Of a stretch of DNA of 64,000 nucleotides, positions 38,211-60,552 are shown one piece after another; within the stretch, counting starts at the first letter, position 1; every line of letters begins with the position of its first letter. The position numbers were made by a program, and so were the translations under genes. The notes beneath the pieces were generated by a model. That model had not been told where the DNA came from. It was given only the letters and a program-made list of their open reading frames with translations, and searched no databases. The DNA is from Arenicellales bacterium (lineage in GTDB: Bacteria > Pseudomonadota > Gammaproteobacteria > Arenicellales > Poriferihabitantaceae): positions 334,781 through 398,780 of the forward strand of contig OY734803.1 in the NCBI GenBank assembly GCA_963457535.1, written 5' to 3'.

Positions 38211-40208
38211 CTACAGCAGCCGCCGCGCGCATTCCACCACATGCTCCGGCGTGATGTTGCAGTGCTTAAATACCTCGCCGCCCGGCGCCGACGCGCCGAA
38301 CTCGTCTATGCCGACCACCGCACCGCGCGCGCCGGCGTATTTCGCCCAGCCGGCGGTCGCGCCGGCTTCCACCACGACGCGCGCATGCGCGGCGGCCGGC
38401 AGCACCGACTCGCGGTAGTCGGCGCTTTGCGCTTCAAAGCGATCCACCGACGGCATGGACACCACGCGCACGCGCCGCTCTTTGAGTTGCGCCGCGGCCT
38501 CCACCGCGACCGCGACTTCCGAGCCGGTGGCGATCAATATGAGTTCCGGATTTTCCGATGAACTTTCGCAGTCGCGCAGCACATAGCCGCCTTTTTCTAT
38601 CGCGGCGAGTTGCGACTCGTCGCGCGGCTGGTGCGGCAGCGTCTGGCGCGAAAATGCCAGCGCAAAAGGCTGCTCGCGCGATTCCAGCGCGAGTTGCCAG
38701 GCGACCGCGGTTTCCACCGCGTCGCACGGCCGCCACACCGACATGCGCGGCACCAGCCGCAAACTCGCGAGGTGTTCTATTGGCTGGTGCGTCGGCCCGT
38801 CTTCGCCGAGCCCGATTGAGTCGTGCGTGAACACAAAAATGCCCGGAATTTTCATCAGCGCGGCCATGCGCAGCGCGTTGCGCGCGTAATCCGAGAACAT
38901 TAAAAAGGTCGCGCAAAACGGCTTGAGGCCGCGGTGCAGCGCGATGCCGTTGACCATCGCGGCCATCGCGAACTCGCGCACGCCGAAATAAATGCAGTTG
39001 CCGCCGGCGTCTTCGCGAATGTCGCGCGAGCCCGACCAAGTGGTCAGGTTGGATTCGGTCAGATCGGCCGAGCCGCCGGCCAGTTCCGGCAACAGCGGCG
39101 AAAAATATTCCAGCGCGTTTTGCGAGGCCTTGCGCGAGGCGATGTTTTGCGCCGCGGCGTCGGCCGCGCCGGCCGCGCCGCGCGCCTTGCTCTTCCAGTC
39201 TTTCGGCAACTTCCCTTCCATGCGGCGCGTGAATTCGGCGGCGAGTTCCGGATGCGCTTTTTTGTATGCGTCAAAACGCCGCGACCAGTCGCTCTCGGCC
39301 GCGGCGCCGGCATCGCGCGCGTCCCAGGCCGCGGAAATTTCGGCCGGAATTTCAAAAGGCGGATGCGGCCAGTTGAGTTGTTTGCGCGCCAGCGCGACCT
39401 CCTCCTCGCCGAGCGGCGCGCCGTGGCTGCCCGCGCTGCCGGCTTTGTTCGGCGCGCCGTAACCGATCTGCGTGCGGCAGCACAGCAAACTCGGGCGCGC
39501 ATCCTCGCGCGCCGCGCAAATCGCGCGCCCGACCGCATCGGCGTCGTGCCCGTCAACATCGGCGACCACATGCCAGCCATACGCGGCAAAACGCGCCGCG
39601 GTGTCGTCGCGAAACCAGCCGCCGACTTCGCCGTCAATGGAAATGTTGTTGTCGTCGTAAAACACGGTCAACTTCCCCAGTTGGAGCACGCCGGCGAGCG
39701 AGCAGGCCTCGTGCGAAATCCCCTCCATCATGCAGCCGTCCCCGGCGAAGACATAGGTGCGGTGGTCCACGATGCGATGTTCGCCGCGGTTGAACTGCGC
39801 GGCCAATGTGCGCTCGGCGAGCGCCATGCCGACCGCATTGGCGAGCCCCTGCCCGAGCGGCCCGGTAGTGGTTTCCACGCCCGGCGTGTCGCCGAATTCC
39901 GGATGCCCCGGCGTTTTGGAATGCAGTTGGCGAAACTGTCGCAGATCTTCCATGGACAAATCGTAGCCGGACAAATGCAGCAACGCATACAGCAGCATGG
40001 AGCCGTGCCCGTTGGACAGCACGAAGCGGTCGCGGTCGCACCAGTTCGGGTTGCGCGGATTATGTTTGAGGTGGTCGCTCCACAGCGCCTCGGCCATGTC
40101 GGCCATCCCCATCGGCGCCCCCGGATGCCCGCTACCGGCGCGCTGCACCGCGTCCATACTCAGCGCGCGAATCGCGTTGGCTTTTTGCCGCCGGTCCGCT
40201 TTGCTCAT
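38211..40208 (-). CDS. tkt: Transketolase
   Basis: [12 protein letters not shown], the [13 protein letters not shown] ThDP motif, and 665 aa length. Confidence 0.95.
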
Positions 40209-40365
40209 GAGGCGGTCATGGAGAGCGCCGAATCACCGCCAAATCCTGGCGCAAATCCTGTTTTGGGGGTCATTTGGCGGGCGGGTATTCGGGCGGGCCT
40301 GGGGGAGCGCGTATGATACTGCAAACGCGGGCGCAAACGGCGCGCCGCGCAAACGTTGCCCCTCC

Positions 40366-41214
40366 TCACAACGGCGAACCCTGCGGGGACGCGGTGTTGG
40401 CATGCACCCAGCGCTCCCAGCCGGGCAGCGCGGCGGCGTGGGCGCTGGCGACCACCGAGCGTTTGCGCAGGCGCGCGCAGTCCAGGGGCTTGCCGGACAG
40501 CGAGGTCGCGGCGCCGCCGGCTTCGGTCAGGATGCGCCAGCCGGCGGCGAAGTCCCATAACTTTTGCCCGCCGTGCAGATACAACTGCGCGCGGTCGGCG
40601 GCGAGCCAGCACCATTCCAATGCGGCCGCGCCGAGGTTGCGCTGCGAACGGTAGGGCGGCGAGCGCACCAAGCGCTCGGACAAATTTCCGACCAGATATT
40701 TGTGGTCGACCACGGCGATGCATTCGCCGAGCGGGCGCGGCGGCGGGCGGCGCAGGCGGCGGCGGTTGAGGTAGGCGCCGCGGCCGGCCTGCGCGCAAAA
40801 ACATTCGCGGCGCAGCGGGTCAAACACCACGCCGAGTTGCGCCGCGCCGTCGGCGACCAGCGCCAGCGAGACGCCGTAAAACGGAAAACCGCTGCTGAAA
40901 TTGGTGGTGCCGTCCAGCGGGTCCAACACCCAGTAACCGGCGCCGCTCTCGCACACCGCGCTCTGCTCGGCATGCGCCATCTCTTCGCCGATAAACCCGT
41001 AGCCGGGCCAGGCGCGGTGCAATTCCTCCAGCAGGCGCTCCTGAATGCGGCGGTCCAGGTCGGTGACCCAGCCGCCGTCGGGTTTGGTGTCGCGCGAAGT
41101 TTTCGCCGGGCGGTTTGCCGCGTGTTCTTCCAGCGCGACTCGTTTCACCAAATCGCCAAGCGCGAACAAATCGGGCGGCGCGTCGTGCGCCGCGGCCGGA
41201 GCAGCGGCGCTCAT
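40366..41214 (-). CDS. Inositol monophosphatase family protein (SuhB/CysQ-like phosphatase)
   Basis: FIGEE and WVLDPLDGTTNF motifs. The ATG at 41214 forms an ATGA overlap with the upstream CheA-like gene. Confidence 0.8.
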   Translation of the reverse strand: MSAAAPAAAHDAPPDLFALGDLVKRVALEEHAANRPAKTSRDTKPDGGWVTDLDRRIQERLLEELHRAWPGYGFIGEEMAHAEQSAVCESGAGYWVLDPLDGTTNFSSGFPFYGVSLALVADGAAQLGVVFDPLRRECFCAQAGRGAYLNRRRLRRPPPRPLGECIAVVDHKYLVGNLSERLVRSPPYRSQRNLGAAALEWCWLAADRAQLYLHGGQKLWDFAAGWRILTEAGGAATSLSGKPLDCARLRKRSVVASAHAAALPGWERWVHANTASPQGSPL

Positions 41215-43670
41215 TGCATCGCCGGCGGGCGAACCGCCGCGCCGGGGAAAATGCCCTGCGCGATGCGGCACAGGTCGGGGACGATGCCGATGCGCCGCTG
41301 CAACTGAACGCAGCCGAGCGCGTTGTCGGGCGGCTCGCGCGGGGTGACCGACGGCGCGTGTTCGGCGATTTCCAACAATGACGGCGCGCCGTCGCTGGCC
41401 AGCGCAAAAAAGGCGGTGGCGCGGTTGCCCTGCAGCGGGCGCAATACCACCGCGCGCGCGCCGCAGCCCAGCGGGCGCGACGGCGCGCCGACCGCGGCCG
41501 CGGCGTCTATCAGCGGGACTTGAAAGCCGCGCCAGTCAAAATTGCGCCGCACCAAATTGGGGCCGCCGGGCGCGGAGTCGCGGCGGAACAAGCCGCCATT
41601 CGCGGAATCCACCGGCATCGGTGTCTCGGAGAGATTGACGATGTCGGCGATCAGGTTGAGCGGAATCAGCACCGCGCCGAGCGAGGTTTCCAGCGCGAGC
41701 ACGCGCGACGGCGCGGCGTCGGCGCCGGGCTCGCGCGCGCCGAGCGGGAAGCGCGCCAACCCGTCGTCCTGCAGGCCGAGCGGGTCGGTGAACGCGGACG
41801 GGTCAAACACCGGCGCGATTTCCCCGCCCTTATGCGAAAGCGGCACGGCGACGCTTTGCAGGCCCTGAATGTCGGAGAGTTGGCCGCCGAGCGCGCGCTC
41901 CTCAATGTCCACGATGTCGTGCACCTGATCCACGGCGAACGCGGCGACGCGGTCGGTCATGCGCAGCAGCACCAGCGGGCGCAGTTGCGGCGGCGGGTTG
42001 GAATTTAATGCGCCGAGCGCGACCGCCAGATCAATCAGCGGAATGCGGCGCGCGTCGTCCAGGCGAATGCTCGCGCGCCCGTCGGCGGCGGTCTCGCAGT
42101 CAATCGGGCGCGCGCGCAGAATGCAGTCCACCTGCCGCATCGGCAGCGCGAGGCGGTAGCCGCCGGCGGTGACCATCAGCGCGCGCGGCGGCGCGGCCGC
42201 GCCCGGCAGCAGGCAATGCAGGCGCAGCCCGGCCTCGGGCGGCGGCGAGGTTTGCAGCGCCATCAAGCCGCCGAGTTCGCCGATGGATTGGTGCATCATT
42301 AATATGTCGTCCATGCCGGCCAGGTTGAACACCGCGGCCGCGCCGTTGCCGCCGGCGGCCGGCGCGCGCGGCGCGCGGTGGGTGCGCGCCAGAATTTGCA
42401 GCCAGTGCGCGGCGCGAATTTCCGAGGCGCGAGCGCACAGGCCGAGGGCGATGGCCGCGTCGGCGAAGCGGCGCGCGCCGGGGCCGCGGCCGTCGTCGGC
42501 GTAGTCCAGCAGCACTTCCCCGCCCTGCCGCGCGGCGCGCAAATGAATGCGCGCGAGCGCGGGTTTGCCGGCCGCGGAACGCGCGCCGGGCTCTTCAATG
42601 CGCTGCACGATGGAATTGTGAATCAGCCGCTCAAACGCCGGCAACAGGCGTTCAATCACGATGCGGTCAATTTCCACATCGCCGCCTTGCAGGGTGAATT
42701 CAACTTGCTTGCCGGCGCGCTCGGCGGTCTCGCGCGCGAGGTGCGGCAGGTGCTGCAGCGGCTCGGCGAAAGTTCCGGGAGGAGGCGCGGACGCGGATTG
42801 GGCGGCGTTGCCGGCATTACCGGGTTGGCGGCCGTTGCGGCGCGCTTCGTCGGAAAGCAACAGCGCGACCATGCTGTTCAGCGAGGCGATATGCCCGCGC
42901 GCGAGCGACGGCGCCAAGCCCAACTCGGCGGCGAGTCCGTCATGCGCTTCTTCCAGCAGGTTCAGCAGGCCGACATCGTTAATGTCGCGCGGCGCTTCCG
43001 ACTGCGCCAGCAAGCGCGCGATGCTGCCGGTGAGCGCGGCGATTTCGTCTTGGCCGGCCACGGTCGCGCCGCGCTGTAGCGCGCGGAATTCTTCGCACAG
43101 CGACTGCAGCAACGCCGCATCCACATTGCCGCCGCGCCAGCCTGCCAAACCGGCGTGAATGCTGGCGAGGCGCGGCTGGCATTCGGCGACGAAAGCCGGC
43201 GAATGCGCCTCGGCCGGCGGCGCCGGGGGCGGAGGCGGAGCAACTTCGGCGGGAGGCGCCGGAGCGGGTGGCGGCGGCGCAGCGACCGGTTGTGCGGTGG
43301 GTGGCGTGGTTGCAGGCGCAGGAGGTACGGGGGGCGCGGCGACGGGCGGCGGCGCGGGTGCGGTGGGAGGCGGAGCGGATGCGACCGACAGCGGCGGCGG
43401 CGCAGGCATCGGCGCCGGTGCAACTCCAATTGGTTGCGCGACGGGCGGCGCGATTCCCGCAGACGGCGCCGGCGCGGTTGCCGTCGGCGTATAGGCGACC
43501 GCCGAGGCCGGCGGACGCTGCGGGGGCTTGTGCGCGCCGCCGAGCGGCGCGCCGGCGTCGGCGTCAAAGTCGTCCACCACCGACTTGCGCGCGGCGAACG
43601 CCGACAACGCGCCGAAGGCGTTGCGCCAACTCGCAGACAGCGTGTCCAGGGCGTCGCGCCAGTGCATCAT
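41211..43670 (-). CDS. CheA-like protein: Pro-rich N-terminus, Hpt-like region without a histidine at the phospho-site, degenerate HATPase-like domain and two CheW-like domains
   Basis: 819 aa. The Hpt-like helix is LCEEFRALQRGATVAGQDEIAAL. The kinase-core-like region is EFTLQGGDVEIDRIVIERLLPAFERLIHNSIVQ ... LLDYADDGRGPG ... IGELGGLMALQTS. The CheW-like blocks are ALMVTAGGYRLALPMRQVD and VLALETSLGAVLIPLNLIADI. Confidence 0.7.
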   Translation of the reverse strand: MMHWRDALDTLSASWRNAFGALSAFAARKSVVDDFDADAGAPLGGAHKPPQRPPASAVAYTPTATAPAPSAGIAPPVAQPIGVAPAPMPAPPPLSVASAPPPTAPAPPPVAAPPVPPAPATTPPTAQPVAAPPPPAPAPPAEVAPPPPPAPPAEAHSPAFVAECQPRLASIHAGLAGWRGGNVDAALLQSLCEEFRALQRGATVAGQDEIAALTGSIARLLAQSEAPRDINDVGLLNLLEEAHDGLAAELGLAPSLARGHIASLNSMVALLLSDEARRNGRQPGNAGNAAQSASAPPPGTFAEPLQHLPHLARETAERAGKQVEFTLQGGDVEIDRIVIERLLPAFERLIHNSIVQRIEEPGARSAAGKPALARIHLRAARQGGEVLLDYADDGRGPGARRFADAAIALGLCARASEIRAAHWLQILARTHRAPRAPAAGGNGAAAVFNLAGMDDILMMHQSIGELGGLMALQTSPPPEAGLRLHCLLPGAAAPPRALMVTAGGYRLALPMRQVDCILRARPIDCETAADGRASIRLDDARRIPLIDLAVALGALNSNPPPQLRPLVLLRMTDRVAAFAVDQVHDIVDIEERALGGQLSDIQGLQSVAVPLSHKGGEIAPVFDPSAFTDPLGLQDDGLARFPLGAREPGADAAPSRVLALETSLGAVLIPLNLIADIVNLSETPMPVDSANGGLFRRDSAPGGPNLVRRNFDWRGFQVPLIDAAAAVGAPSRPLGCGARAVVLRPLQGNRATAFFALASDGAPSLLEIAEHAPSVTPREPPDNALGCVQLQRRIGIVPDLCRIAQGIFPGAAVRPPAMQ

Positions 43671-43733
43671 GATCGTATGCGTCGTCCGCGGTCGGTCATC
43701 GCTTTGCCGGCCGGCGCGGTCATCCCCCGGCCG

Positions 43734-44816
43734 TCAGCGCCGCAGCGCATGCATCTCCAAAAAGTCACGGCTGGCGCTTTCAATTTCGCCGAGCGCGCGC
43801 GCCGCGTCAATCGCGAGCGCGGCGCCGCCGGTGGCGTCGCCGGCGGTCGCCTCGGTCTCGGCCAGGGCCTGCTCGGCATCGCGTTTCATGCGCCGCGCGA
43901 GGTCGGCGATTTCGCCGATGACGCGCGCCGAATTGGCCGCCAGTCTTTGCGCGTCTTCGGCGGCGAGCGCCATGCCGCGCCCGGATTCGCCGGAGCGCGC
44001 GGCTTGCACCGCCGCGTTCAGCGCAAGAATGTCGGCCTGCTCGCCGACTTCCAGCAATTGCTCGCCGAGCGCGGTGATGCGCTGCGCGCTGTCTTCCAGT
44101 TGGTGCAGGCGCTCGGCGGTGGTGCGCAATTGTTTGGCGGCGTTGTCCAGGCCGGTGATGGTGTTGTGCACCGCGGCCGCGCCCTTTTGCGCGGAGACCT
44201 CGGCGGCGCGAAGGGCGTCATGCGAGGTCGCGCCGCCATAGCCATTGCCGCCGTTGCTGCGATTTCGCGCCGGGGCGGCGCGCGCCGGTTCGGGAATCGG
44301 CGCGGGAATGGGCTCCGGAATGGGCGCCGGCGCAGGGATGACGCGCTCCGGTTCTGGCGCGGGTTCGGGCGCGGGCACAGGTTCGGGGAGCGGCGGCGGC
44401 GAAATCGGCGCGGGTTCGGCGATGCTCGCTGGCTCGGGAACCGCCTCGGGTACGGGCGCGGGTTCGGGAATGCCGGCGTGTTCGGATTCGGTGGTGCTCT
44501 CGCGCGCGGGAATGCGCATGCGCCGACGCCGGCGGCGGCGCGCCAGGCCGATCCACAGCATCAAAATCACCAGCGCGCCCAGCCCGCCGAGCAGCCACGG
44601 CGTGTTGCGCTCCAGTTCGGCCCTGGCGACCTCTAGCAACAGCGCCCACAGCGATTCGGCTACGGTCAAATCGGCCGCGGCCGCGGCGATGCCCGGGAAA
44701 GCCAGCGCGCCGAACACGACGCTGGGACCGGCGCCGGGCCGCAATGCGCGTTTGCACATTAAGAAAGTGTGCAGCGCGACGCGCATGCCGGGCAGCCGGA
44801 TTGCAAGGCGCGTCAT
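43734..44816 (-). CDS. Short methyl-accepting-chemotaxis-protein-like transducer (two TM segments, PEP-repeat linker, about 165-aa signalling hairpin, no HAMP recognised)
   Basis: The hairpin-tip motif GEQADILALNAAVQAARSGESGRGMALAAEDAQRLA resembles the MCP consensus. The ATG at 44816 gives an ATGA overlap with the CheW-like gene. Confidence 0.7.
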   Translation of the reverse strand: MTRLAIRLPGMRVALHTFLMCKRALRPGAGPSVVFGALAFPGIAAAAADLTVAESLWALLLEVARAELERNTPWLLGGLGALVILMLWIGLARRRRRRRMRIPARESTTESEHAGIPEPAPVPEAVPEPASIAEPAPISPPPLPEPVPAPEPAPEPERVIPAPAPIPEPIPAPIPEPARAAPARNRSNGGNGYGGATSHDALRAAEVSAQKGAAAVHNTITGLDNAAKQLRTTAERLHQLEDSAQRITALGEQLLEVGEQADILALNAAVQAARSGESGRGMALAAEDAQRLAANSARVIGEIADLARRMKRDAEQALAETEATAGDATGGAALAIDAARALGEIESASRDFLEMHALRR

Positions 44817-45463
44817 TGTCCGACTCGCCGCCATTGTTCCGAGGACAACAGCGCGTCCATGTCCAGCACGCCCCAGCGCCGCGCGCCTTCGCGCAACGCC
44901 GCGCGCAAATACGGCGCGACGCTTTGCGCCGCCTCCTCGCGCGCGGCGGCCGGCAGGCCGCCTTCAAACACGCGCAGACTGACGCTTTTGTCCAGCAACA
45001 ACGCGCTGTAAAAATCCTGCTGCGGCGGCAGCAACAGCAGCCGCGCGCGCGACGCGTCGGTCGCGCCGAAGCCGAGGAAGTCGGCGAGGTCTATCACCGT
45101 GTAAATTTTTCCGTGCATGGCGGCGATGCCGCGCACCCAGCCGCGGCAGCGCGGCAGCGCGCACAACCGGTCGGCCGAGGCGATTTCCATGCCGTCTTGC
45201 AGCGGCAGCGCGAGGTGTTCGTCGGCCTGCCGAACGCCGCTTTCGTCCGCGCCGCGCCGCGCCAGCCGGAACGCGAATCCGTGCCAGTCGCCAGGGCCGC
45301 GCGCATGCGTGCGGCGTCCAAACGCCGCGTTTTCCAGGTGGCGCAACAAAACGCTTGCCGGCAGCGGCGCACCCGCGCCCGGTTCGGCCTGGCCGGCAGG
45401 ACCGCCCCGCGCGGCGGGAGCGGGCGGCGGGGCGCGAAATGCGGGGTCGGTGGGCTGGGGCAT
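44813..45463 (-). CDS. CheW-like coupling protein
   Basis: WVRGIAAMHGKIYTVIDLADFLG ... ARLLLLPP ... YSALLLDKSVSLRVF matches CheW/PilI-type domains. The start is taken at 45463 (MPQPTDP). The track ORF begins at 45577. Confidence 0.65.
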   Translation of the reverse strand: MPQPTDPAFRAPPPAPAARGGPAGQAEPGAGAPLPASVLLRHLENAAFGRRTHARGPGDWHGFAFRLARRGADESGVRQADEHLALPLQDGMEIASADRLCALPRCRGWVRGIAAMHGKIYTVIDLADFLGFGATDASRARLLLLPPQQDFYSALLLDKSVSLRVFEGGLPAAAREEAAQSVAPYLRAALREGARRWGVLDMDALLSSEQWRRVGQ

Positions 45464-45576
45464 TTTTTTCGCCGTTTGCGCGAAAATCACGAAAATAACG
45501 GATACTATACCGAATACCGCATGCAAACAAGGCATTGCAATCCCGGACACAATCTGCTTTAATCGTCCGTCCACCA

Positions 45577-45596
45577 AACGCTTATCAACGCTTATC
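45577..45596 (+). repeat. Perfect 10-bp direct tandem repeat (aacgcttatc x2) abutting the GGAGG of the peptide-binding-protein gene
   Basis: Read directly. GGAGG is at 45597-45601 and the ATG is at 45611. Confidence 0.9.
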
Positions 45597-45610
45597 GGAG
45601 GTATTTTTCC

Positions 45611-47311
45611 ATGTCATCAAAAGACGACCAATTTTCCCCCGGACGGGTTCACCCCGGGGTGCAAACCATGCAGGACCAGTTGTTGCGCGGCAAATGCTCG
45701 CGGCGCGAATTCCTGCGAACCGTGACCCTTCTCGGCCTGTCGGCGCCGGCCGCATACGGCCTTGCCGGACGGTTGCTCGGCGAAAAACTCGTGCCGCCGG
45801 CGGTGACGCCCGCGCATGCGCAGTCCGGCGGACTGCTGCGCTTCGGCATGTTCGTGCAGGAGATGACCGACCCGGCCACCTTTGACTGGGTGGAGCGCTC
45901 GGTGGTTGCGCGCCACATCGTGGAATACATGACGCTGACCGGGCCCGACAATGTCACCCGCCCGTATCTGGCCGAGCGCTGGCAGCCGTCGGACGACCTC
46001 AAAACCTGGCGCTTCTTCCTGCGCAAGGGCATCAAGTGGTCAAACGGAGACGACTTCAACGCCGACGACGTGGTGTTCAACTTCACCCGCTGGTGCGACC
46101 CGAAAACCGGCTCGTCCAACCTCGGCCTGTTCTCGGCGATGCTGGAAGACACCGGCCAAAACGACAGCGCCGGCAAGCCGATCAAGCGCATGACGCCGGG
46201 CGCGGTGCGCAAGGTCGACGACCACACCGTGGAAATCCGCCTGAACTCTCCGGTGCTTTCCATTCCGGAAAACCTCTACAACTACCCGACCGCGATCGTC
46301 CACCGCAACTTTGAGCGCGACGGCGGCGACCTCAGCAAAAACCCGGTCGGAACCGGCCCCTACATGCTCGACCTGTTCAAACTGGGCGAAGTGGCCGTGC
46401 TGAAGAAACGCCCGGAGCCGTATTGGGGCGGCGATGTTTCGCTCGACGAAATCCGCATCATCGACCTCGGGGCGGACGAAGGGGCGACCCTCGCCGCGCT
46501 CGCCTCCGGGCAGATCGACTCCATGTACGAGTTGAAACTGACCACGGTGGAAGCGGCAAAAAACATCCCGAATGTTTCCATCCAGCAGGTCGCCACCGCC
46601 AAGACCGGCGTCATCCGCATGAACCTCGCGCACAAGCCGTTTGACGACAAACGCGTGCGCCGCGCGATTCAAATGTGCTGCGACTCCGACCGCCAGCTGA
46701 AGATCGCGCACAAAGGCTTCGGCATCGTCGGCGAGCATGTGCATGTCGCCAGCATCCACCCGGAATACTTCAAACTGCCGAAGTTCAACCAGGACATCGA
46801 AGGCGCGAAGAAACTGCTGGCGAAAGCCGGCTATCCGAACGGCCTGTCGGTTTCATGCAATGTCGGCAACACCGATGGCACCTGGGAGCAGGACTCCATC
46901 GCGGTGCTGAAGCAGGACGCGGCGAAAGCCGGCATTGACATCTCCATCAACGTCATGCCGTCCGCGAAATACTGGGACGAATGGGCGACCGCGCCGTTCA
47001 GCCTGACCTCGTGGACGCACCGTCCGCTCGGCACCATGGTGCTGTCGCTGGCCTACCGCGCCGGCGTGCCGTGGAACGAGACCAGCTACAACAACCCGGC
47101 CTTTGACCGCGCGCTGACCGCCGCCGAAGGCGTGTTTGACGTCGAGAAACGCCGCGCCAAGATGGAAAAAGTCGAGCAGATCCTGCAGGACGACGCCATC
47201 ATGGTGCAGCCGTTCTTCCGCTCGGTGTTCGTCGCGGTCTCCAACCGAGTGCGGAACTTCTCGATTCACCCGACGCTGTATCACCGCTTCCACAACGTGC
47301 GCGTCGGCTGA
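45611..47311 (+). CDS. ABC transporter substrate-binding protein, family 5 (peptide/nickel/opine type) with a Tat-like signal
   Basis: [23 protein letters not shown] twin-arginine-like leader. 566 aa with family-5 fold motifs. A strong SD is present. Confidence 0.9.
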
Positions 47312-59800: not shown

Positions 59801-59841
59801 TTACAATTGCCGCCCCATTCGCTCAATCGTATCACCGCGCG

Positions 59842-60552
59842 ATGCGCGTTCTCATCATAGAAGACGACGACGCGACCGCCGCCTACATTCGCAAGGGGCT
59901 GCGCGAAGCCGGGCACGCCGCCGACACCGCCGCCGACGGCGAAGCGGGCCTGGCGCGCGCCGCCGGCGGAAACTACCAGGCGCTGGTCGTGGACCGCATG
60001 CTGCCGCGCTTGGACGGCCTGGCGCTGATAGCAAAACTGCGCGCGCGCGGCGACAACACCCCGGCGCTGATTCTCAGCGCGCTCGGCGAAGTCGGCGACC
60101 GCGTGGAGGGGCTGCGCGCCGGCGGCGACGACTATCTGGCAAAACCGTTCGCCTTCACCGAATTGCTGGCGCGCCTGGACGCGCTGGCGCGGCGCGCGCG
60201 GGACGGCGCGCAAATGGGCGCGGACGGCGGCGCGATATTGCGCGTCGGCGATTTGGAAATGGATTTGCCGCGCCGCGAAGTGCGGCGCGGCGGCGCGCGC
60301 ATCGCGCTGCAGCCGCGCGAGTTTCGGCTGCTGGAATACATGATGCGCCACAGCAACCAGGTGGTCACGCGCACCATGCTGCTGGAAAATGTCTGGGACT
60401 ACCGCTTTGACCCGCAGACCAATGTCATTGATGTGCACATCAGCCGCCTGCGCCGCAAAATCGACCGCGGCTTCGGCGCGCAATTGCTGAACACGGTGCG
60501 CGGCGCCGGCTACATTTTGCGCGAGCCGGAAAGCGGGCCGGACGCGCGGTGA
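59842..60552 (+). CDS. OmpR-family two-component response regulator
   Basis: Receiver domain (MRVLIIEDD ... LVVDRMLPRLDG ... DDYLAKPF) and a winged-helix C-terminus (REFRLLEYMMRH ... VRGAGYIL). Confidence 0.92.
   Translation: MRVLIIEDDDATAAYIRKGLREAGHAADTAADGEAGLARAAGGNYQALVVDRMLPRLDGLALIAKLRARGDNTPALILSALGEVGDRVEGLRAGGDDYLAKPFAFTELLARLDALARRARDGAQMGADGGAILRVGDLEMDLPRREVRRGGARIALQPREFRLLEYMMRHSNQVVTRTMLLENVWDYRFDPQTNVIDVHISRLRRKIDRGFGAQLLNTVRGAGYILREPESGPDAR

Follow-up and report, generated by a model that had tools for sequence, protein, structure and literature searches.

A probable pseudokinase derived from ChpA at a reduced Pil-Chp locus of sponge-associated Arenicellales

We analyzed a 64,000-nucleotide stretch of contig OY734803.1 (positions 334,781 to 398,780; referred to as the window) from an Arenicellales bacterium, with attention to a chemosensory locus on its reverse strand. 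Three genes lie there in the order of transcription, encoding a PilI-like CheW protein, a methyl-accepting chemotaxis protein (MCP)-like protein derived from PilJ, and P0001, an open reading frame (ORF) of 819 amino acids (aa) in which the original prediction had proposed a CheA-like pseudokinase (Table 1). All of the peptides quoted in that prediction were found in this ORF. The next gene belongs to the inositol-monophosphatase (IMPase) family, and its ATG overlaps the TGA of the pseudokinase ORF in an ATGA at 41211-41214. Genes for transketolase (tkt), glyceraldehyde-3-phosphate dehydrogenase (GAPDH; gap), and phosphoglycerate kinase (pgk) follow. On the upstream side, the chemosensory genes are bordered by an oligopeptide ABC operon that is divergently oriented. 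The longest IMPase ORF, opening with GTG at 41271, probably does not begin at the true start, as the IMPase of relatives measures 282-286 aa. Sponge metagenomes contain the DNA of the window, and the stretch was identical in three independent sponge sequencing runs. Because the three runs agree without differences, the stretch is not an assembly artefact.

Table 1. Positions of the chemosensory genes, the domains of the 819-aa protein, and the adjoining gene in the window
Feature	Position	Strand	Basis
PilI-like CheW protein	44813..45577	-	longest ORF; likely start Met at 45463; Pfam CheW E=3.6e-12
PilJ-derived MCP-like protein, 366 aa	43734..44834	-	hydrophobic segments, Pro/Glu/Ala-rich linker, signalling domain only; Pfam MCPsignal E=8e-18
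ChpA-derived probable pseudokinase ORF, 819 aa (P0001)	41211..43670	-	ORF and translation
N-terminal extension: 40-residue non-repetitive leader, then Pro/Ala-rich low-complexity residues 41-157	43200..43670	-	
P1/Hpt-like helical domain, residues 158-275; orthologue of the last ChpA Hpt	42846..43199	-	profile, collinearity, AF2
Arg196 codon, position of the phospho-acceptor His	43083..43085	-	alignments to E. coli His48 and to L089 ChpA 'REFHTLKGS'
P4-like (HATPase_c-fold) domain, residues 306-492, decayed active site	42195..42755	-	Foldseek, motif table
F box/ATP lid/G2 remnant, residues 428-455, 'ARTHRAPRAP...FNLAGMDD'	42306..42389	-	counterpart of 'PGFST...SGRGVGMD' in CheA from E. coli and T. 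maritima; low pLDDT
P5 (first CheW-like) domain, residues 493-640	41751..42194	-	Pfam CheW, CheA P5 alignment
Second CheW-like domain, residues 655-819, derived from a chpC-like gene originally separate and downstream	41214..41708	-	
IMPase-family gene	40366..41214	-	Pfam Inositol_P E=3.7e-48

Judged by its sequence, the 819-aa ORF is a true CheA homologue, and the family profile matched P4-P5 structures of CheA from both T. maritima and E. coli with E=4e-45. Pfam recognized CheW only, in two stretches. No match to Hpt, HATPase_c, H-kinase_dim (PF02895), or Response_reg was found in the protein, and for Hpt and HATPase_c there was none at E<1. NCBIfam CheA models matched residues 307-623, far under their cutoff. 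P5 scored E=1.9e-17 against Pfam CheW (best stretch 497-627) and aligns with P5 of the solved CheA structures. The second CheW-like domain passed the same model when taken alone (E=2.4e-5; 24.4 bits versus a cutoff of 23.5), so that both of the CheW-like blocks originally proposed were recovered. All six homologous C-terminal segments tested were also over the Pfam CheW threshold, while a profile of the C-terminal domain reached CheW among PDB sequences at E ~0.3 only. The P1-like domain is joined to P4 by a linker of 30 residues. P2 and a receiver domain are both missing from the protein, and P3 is missing as well, as had been noted: residues 1138-1382 of the full-length ChpA from the related, untruncated locus L089 have no counterpart.

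The 662-residue core was modeled with AlphaFold2 (AF2) from a 13-sequence alignment, and the model was usable for P1 and P4 alone. Its predicted local distance difference test (pLDDT) values were 75-88 in the P1-like helices and 75-90 in the P4 fold. In a Foldseek comparison, the model matched P4 of T. maritima CheA with a template modeling (TM) score of 0.84 and a root-mean-square deviation of 2.8 Å. DivL also appeared among the Foldseek matches. As for the N-terminal region, Pro, Ala, and Val make up 73% of residues 45-165, in line with the earlier description, and the Pro/Ala extension is confined to the sub-clade of the window; more distant family members do not have it. The extension appears to be translated. 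Met88 is the closest in-frame start 5' of the pseudokinase core. Compared with the extension of a 99% identical twin (L083), there is one in-frame indel of 3 bp, and synonymous changes outnumber non-synonymous ones by 7 to 3. In a 68% identical relative (L084), an equally Pro/Ala-rich frame stays open for 169 codons or more before the called start and is in phase with the gene.

We then compared the phospho-site and the ATP site with those of known CheA proteins. In a weak (E ~1e-3), ungapped alignment of the family profile with E. coli CheA P1, His48 corresponds to Arg196 and Lys51 to Gln199. The alignment with full-length L089 ChpA also places the His of 'REFHTLKGS' at Arg196, and the Gly of the H-x-x-K-G context is gone too. 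In the N box, His376 of E. coli CheA is replaced by Arg348 and 'DHG' by 'VQR', with Asn380 kept as Asn352. The G1 motif 'DDGxG' is retained as DDGRG. The F box 'PGFST' reads 'RTHRA', and 'AGMD' is all that survives of the G2 motif 'GRGVGMD'. These box residues of E. coli CheA matter for autokinase activity, as established by mutagenesis and structural work. The profile alignment and inspection of catalytic columns proposed with the original prediction thus gave the result it had foreseen: no acceptor His, an intact N-box Asn and G1, and a degenerate G2. The F box was missing as well.

Other histidines were considered as substitutes. His172 ('SIHAGL'), one of the two that had been named as potentially overturning the pseudokinase assignment, is unconserved. 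The other, His243, is invariant in the family together with His260, and both were rejected as substitute acceptors since they are kept in ChpA Hpt domains that bear the canonical His. Because they are equally conserved in those canonical domains, they are better read as structural or docking features. Autophosphorylation and phosphotransfer by the protein are very unlikely, and with no acceptor His, dimerization domain, ATP lid/G2, or receiver it is predicted to be unable to act as a canonical CheA.

To place the protein in its family, 1.84 billion representative proteins were searched with the family profile. About 20 truncated relatives stood at the top of the list, followed by multi-stretch proteins of 1700-2700 aa, which is the architecture of ChpA. 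A scan of species-representative genomes found the family in six metagenome-assembled genomes only, labelled Arenicellales or Candidatus Poriferihabitaceae; L089 is one of these six loci and is untruncated. A contig scan with P0001 alone gave no match, an alignment-based scan succeeded, and a metagenome scan added 3 loci. In pairwise comparison with the window protein, the twin P0006 is 99% identical, the relative P0007 is 68% identical, and the full-length relatives P0009-P0015 show 34-40% identity.

Catalytic motifs were tabulated for 20 truncated proteins. The Hpt-like domain is collinear with a ChpA Hpt reading 'REFHTLKGSAAATGF ... LLNLLEEVHDGLAAELGF', and its acceptor position is occupied by Arg in nine proteins, His in three, Gln in three, Asp in two, Ser in two, and Ala in one. 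All 20 lack the Gly of 'KG', the F box, and G2. In 13 of them another residue stands in for the Mg-binding Asn, and the three proteins that keep the acceptor His carry Gly, Gly, or Asp at the position of this Asn. G1 'DDG' is mostly retained and is the best-kept kinase motif of the truncated family. A complete set of catalytic motifs was found in none of the 20 proteins, whereas every kinase box is present in L089 ChpA and in P0047. Invariant features of the Hpt-like domain are WR, the 11-residue LLNLLEExHDG (the most conserved motif of the window protein), and His260, all of which occur equally in functional-looking ChpA Hpt domains. Many positions of P5 and of the second CheW-like domain (CheW2) are also invariant in the family.

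A maximum-likelihood tree of P4-P5, with canonical CheA as the outgroup, was built with 18 of the truncated proteins. All 18 fell into one clade (SH-aLRT 100) nested among ChpA-like proteins, and forms with a P3-like coiled coil (P0041, P0043, P0045, and P0046) lie inside it. The residue at the acceptor site (R/Q/S/D/A/H) requires at least 8 changes on this tree. The branch leading to the window protein and P0007 is long (0.95). Taken together, the motif table and the single-clade tree indicate that the loss of kinase function belongs to the whole clade and is not an accident of the window genome. Incomplete motifs and a freely drifting phospho-site therefore strengthen the reading of the protein as a pseudokinase.

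Comparison with related loci points to the origin of the genes. At L089, in a related Arenicellales genome, the order is TonB, the receivers PilG and PilH, CheW (PilI), MCP, ChpA, a 151-aa ORF, and IMPase-tkt-gap-pgk. The L089 MCP has 738 aa and a PilJ N-terminal domain, and the window MCP aligns solely with its residues 495-671. The L089 ChpA is 1853 aa long; it matches Pfam Hpt in three stretches and also has HATPase_c, CheW, and receiver domains. The window protein corresponds to about residues 1015-1137 (the last Hpt) and 1391 to ~1710 (P4-P5) of it, and its C-terminal domain and the separate 151-aa ORF (L089:12565-13020) align over their full length. The reduced order CheW-MCP-ChpA'-IMPase-tkt-gap-pgk is repeated in seven other reduced loci, among them L002, L083, L087, L088, L090, and L091, and a complete tonB-pilG-pilH-pilI-pilJ-chpA is present in relatives from the same family and its neighbors (L095-L101). 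Reduced loci lie in OY843749.1, OZ253546.1, OZ243042.1, CBDBBV01, and CBDFMY01 as well as in the genome of the window. The CheW gene is syntenic in all related loci. On the basis of the shared gene order and of the IMPase-tkt-gap-pgk flank in the full-locus relatives, the locus is identified as orthologous to pilG-pilH-pilI-pilJ-chpA-chpC. The reduced locus L001 additionally shares pyrC'-pyrB-pyrR-ruvX-DUF179 on its upstream side, the genes that precede pilG in P. aeruginosa.

The window thus shares the order pilI-pilJ-chpA-chpC with the Pil-Chp system of P. aeruginosa, whose CheA is of the type IV pilus (Tfp) class. It differs from that system in that pilG/pilH and pilK/chpB are absent from the locus and PilJ has no periplasmic domain. 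No pilG, pilH, or receiver gene was found in any reduced locus, nor within 15 kb in the window. In a pattern-based scan, close PilG homologues occurred in the full-locus relatives and in no contig with a reduced locus, which is suggestive. The sole match to the PilG/PilH receivers in the window, at 59839-60186 on the forward strand (26-29% identity), is probably an unrelated two-component regulator ~15 kb away.

Selection on the core was estimated by the Nei-Gojobori method. Ratios of non-synonymous to synonymous divergence (dN/dS) ranged overall from 0.13 to 0.47, with 0.13 against the 99% twin, 0.32 against the 68% relative, and 0.30-0.43 among Poriferihabitaceae loci at dS ~0.8-1.1. For the individual domains, values were 0.25-0.39 (P1-like), 0.23-0.49 (P4-like, with 0.65 in one pair where P4 is partly deleted), 0.08-0.54 (P5), and 0.03-0.57 (second CheW-like domain). 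The neighboring tkt, gap, and pgk gave 0.11-0.29 in the same pairs. The ORFs of all orthologues were intact at dS ~1. These results show that constraint is relaxed about two-fold yet clearly present.

We consider it likely that the ORF is a reduced ChpA orthologue that has turned into a pseudokinase and serves a reduced Pil-Chp core complex as its scaffold. The ancestral locus would have been that of the relatives, tonB-pilG-pilH-pilI-pilJ-chpA-chpC followed by IMPase-tkt-gap-pgk. In one lineage of sponge-associated Arenicellales/Ca. Poriferihabitaceae, pilG and pilH would have been dropped from the locus, pilJ would have shed its periplasmic sensor half, and chpA would have been cut down to its last Hpt and P4-P5, with the receiver domain gone. 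The P3 dimerization domain would additionally have been lost in the sub-lineage of the window, and an in-frame fusion would have joined the shortened chpA with the chpC-like CheW gene downstream of it. The Hpt-like domain would have come to carry Arg at the acceptor site, and the kinase domain would have kept its fold, Mg-binding Asn, and G1 and lost the F box, lid, and G2. Beyond the original prediction, these comparisons thus identify a reduced ChpA-ChpC fusion at an orthologous Pil-Chp locus that appears clade-wide and under selection in sponge symbionts.

PilI', PilJ', and ChpA'-ChpC would still form a receptor-CheW-CheA-type core unit via the MCP tip, P5, and two or three CheW-like modules. 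The three retained proteins probably do form a complex resembling a core unit, because what was kept (MCP tip, PilI, P5, and ChpC-like module) is precisely the set of parts from which the receptor-kinase-coupling lattice is built. This complex would work as a non-catalytic scaffold or conformational sensor, in which the conserved Hpt-like domain would be a docking surface, as in FimL, and not a phospho-carrier. Since PilJ' has no periplasmic domain, the input would be membrane-borne or cytoplasmic.

There are precedents for Hpt-like domains that cannot be phosphorylated and serve in binding instead. FimL, a paralogue of the N-terminal part of ChpA, has Gln at the acceptor sites (PMC3019171) and works as a scaffold or hub, not as a phospho-carrier (PMC12632253). 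Four of the nine Xpt domains of ChpA are not phosphorylated (PMC12632253), and a docking role has been proposed for FimL and for these non-phosphorylated domains (PMC3019171, PMC12632253). Likened by description, FimL and the window protein are both derived from ChpA and have Hpt-like domains without an acceptor His. The FimL analogy drawn at the outset was apt and proves closer than was noted then, as the window protein is itself a ChpA derivative. It is not FimL, however, since P4, P5, and CheW-like domains are present; FimL has none of these and comes from the N-terminal Xpt region, in contrast to the last Hpt and kinase core retained here. DivL of Caulobacter, a pseudo-histidine kinase without an acceptor His that is kept for non-catalytic partner sensing (PMC4211667), likewise combines a histidine-kinase fold with a missing acceptor. 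By contrast with the window protein, it belongs to the HisKA/DHp class, carries Tyr at the site, has a largely intact ATP domain, and is unrelated to chemosensory arrays.

The closest relationship is with ChpA and ChpC. P4-P5 of the window protein nests among ChpA-like proteins, its Hpt is collinear with the last Hpt of the ChpA of a relative, and its C-terminal domain corresponds to the ChpC-like CheW protein. ChpA has 8-9 Xpt domains, whereas the window protein has one, with Arg for His; it also differs from ChpA in the absence of P3, the receiver, and the F and G2 boxes and in the fusion to ChpC. With canonical CheA of E. coli and T. maritima it shares the P1-like, P4, and P5 folds and the partnership with CheW and an MCP, but it has no phospho-His, P2, or P3, its ATP site is decayed, and it carries an extra CheW-like domain.

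Several observations weigh against this reading or limit it. The AF2 model had a mean pLDDT of 53.5 and was poor outside P1 and P4, and we infer core-unit assembly and Hpt docking from conservation only. Sequencing runs with the window stretch had a flat, DNA-like depth across the genes, which is uninformative on expression. The dN/dS of the core is roughly twice that of the housekeeping neighbors, and part of the truncated family may be on the way to loss. At L001:9384-12013 (Arenicellales, OY843749.1), a CheW gene is followed by a truncated ChpA with no MCP between them, so the pseudokinase persists there without a cognate receptor at the locus. At L003:5698-8496 (Ca. Poriferihabitaceae, OZ243931.1), a 932-aa ORF between tonB and IMPase-tkt retains the N-terminal Xpt region of ChpA, its last Hpt (with Gln at the acceptor), and P3 but not P4/P5, and no CheW or MCP genes were found beside it. 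This locus appears to be a FimL-like outcome reached via a different deletion.

These observations lead to the main alternative, a silent relic, in which the ORF would be the decaying Pil-Chp remnant of a host-restricted symbiont, not yet broken by stop codons and without a current role. The progressive, lineage-specific loss of domains (N-terminal Xpt and P3 only at L003, no MCP at L001, and low-complexity inserts in the clade of the window), the elevated dN/dS, the drift of catalytic and acceptor residues, and the long branch to the window protein and P0007 would all be expected of such a relic. It is nonetheless unlikely. Intact full-length ORFs persist in at least 18 clusters at more than 50% sequence difference with dS saturated, and the dN/dS of the core is far from ~1 and, apart from the pair with a partly deleted P4, below 0.6 in the folded domains. 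Furthermore, LLNLLEExHDG and many P5 and CheW2 positions have remained invariant, and the ATGA of translational coupling is retained.

A further alternative is that the P4-like domain binds ATP or ADP non-catalytically and thereby modulates the complex, which is conceivable for the sub-clade of the window. Because Asn352 and the Asp and Gly of G1 are kept in the clade of the window, some nucleotide binding by the P4-like domain may occur, which also weighs against the main reading. G1 is the best-kept kinase motif family-wide, and the P4 fold is predicted with good pLDDT and lies under purifying selection. However, the phosphate-clamping G2 and the lid are gone, the Asn is not conserved across the family, and Pfam HATPase_c misses the domain at E<1, so that nucleotide sensing seems a rather improbable function. 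That the protein is a working phosphorelay kinase with a non-canonical acceptor, either another P1-like His or an Hpt or receiver on a second protein that is phosphorylated in trans, by analogy with the split CheA pair CheA3/CheA4 of R. sphaeroides, would agree with the kept N-box Asn and DDGRG in the window and its nearest relatives and with the invariance of His243 and His260, but it is highly improbable given that none of the 20 truncated proteins has the F box, lid, or G2 and 13 lack the N-box Asn, that the two histidines look structural, that P3 is missing, that the reduced loci contain no receiver gene, and that the pattern-based scan found no close PilG on their contigs.

The reduced ChpA-ChpC pseudokinase bears on how chemosensory systems are viewed. 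They are understood as phosphorelays centered on CheA autophosphorylation. Here, purifying selection maintains a CheA-class family that has lost the His, lid, and dimerization domain, along with its CheW and a receptor stub, which suggests that the core complex is useful for something other than kinase activity. One symbiont clade provides a stepwise series: full Pil-Chp, truncated with P3, truncated without P3, without MCP, and N-terminus only. With this series one can ask which contacts keep the core unit together and follow how motility-linked signalling decays or is repurposed in host adaptation. The bacteria themselves are uncultured. A CheA pseudokinase, or a CheA/ChpA family without His and lid, was not found described in the literature covered, which leaves out most subscription journals. 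More tentatively, the array core may have found a new use in the sponge symbionts that does not depend on kinase activity, either as a scaffold at the pole or membrane or as a conformational sensor that signals when partners bind its His-less Hpt-like domain. Should this doubtful possibility be true, the output of the device would be of a kind so far undescribed among chemosensory systems.

The IMPase was also considered as the output of the system and was rejected as unsupported. IMPase adjacency was observed in all related loci, and because the gene adjoins complete Pil-Chp loci too, equally tightly, the linkage is not specific to the reduced form. Finally, some features of base composition and low-complexity sequence were observed around the chemosensory genes. 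The G+C content is 0.70-0.72 at 40000-46000 of the window versus 0.60-0.67 elsewhere in it. Pro/Ala(/Glu)-rich inserts of the sub-clade occur in all three proteins, namely, at the N-terminus of ChpA', in the linker of PilJ' ('PEPAPVPEAVPEP...'), and at the N-terminus of PilI'. In the 99% twin (L083:4424-5552), the MCP-like gene matches as two pieces, corresponding to residues 1-144 and 169-366, and the called product has 183 aa. The Pro/Glu-rich MCP linker thus seems to differ in length or frame between strains.

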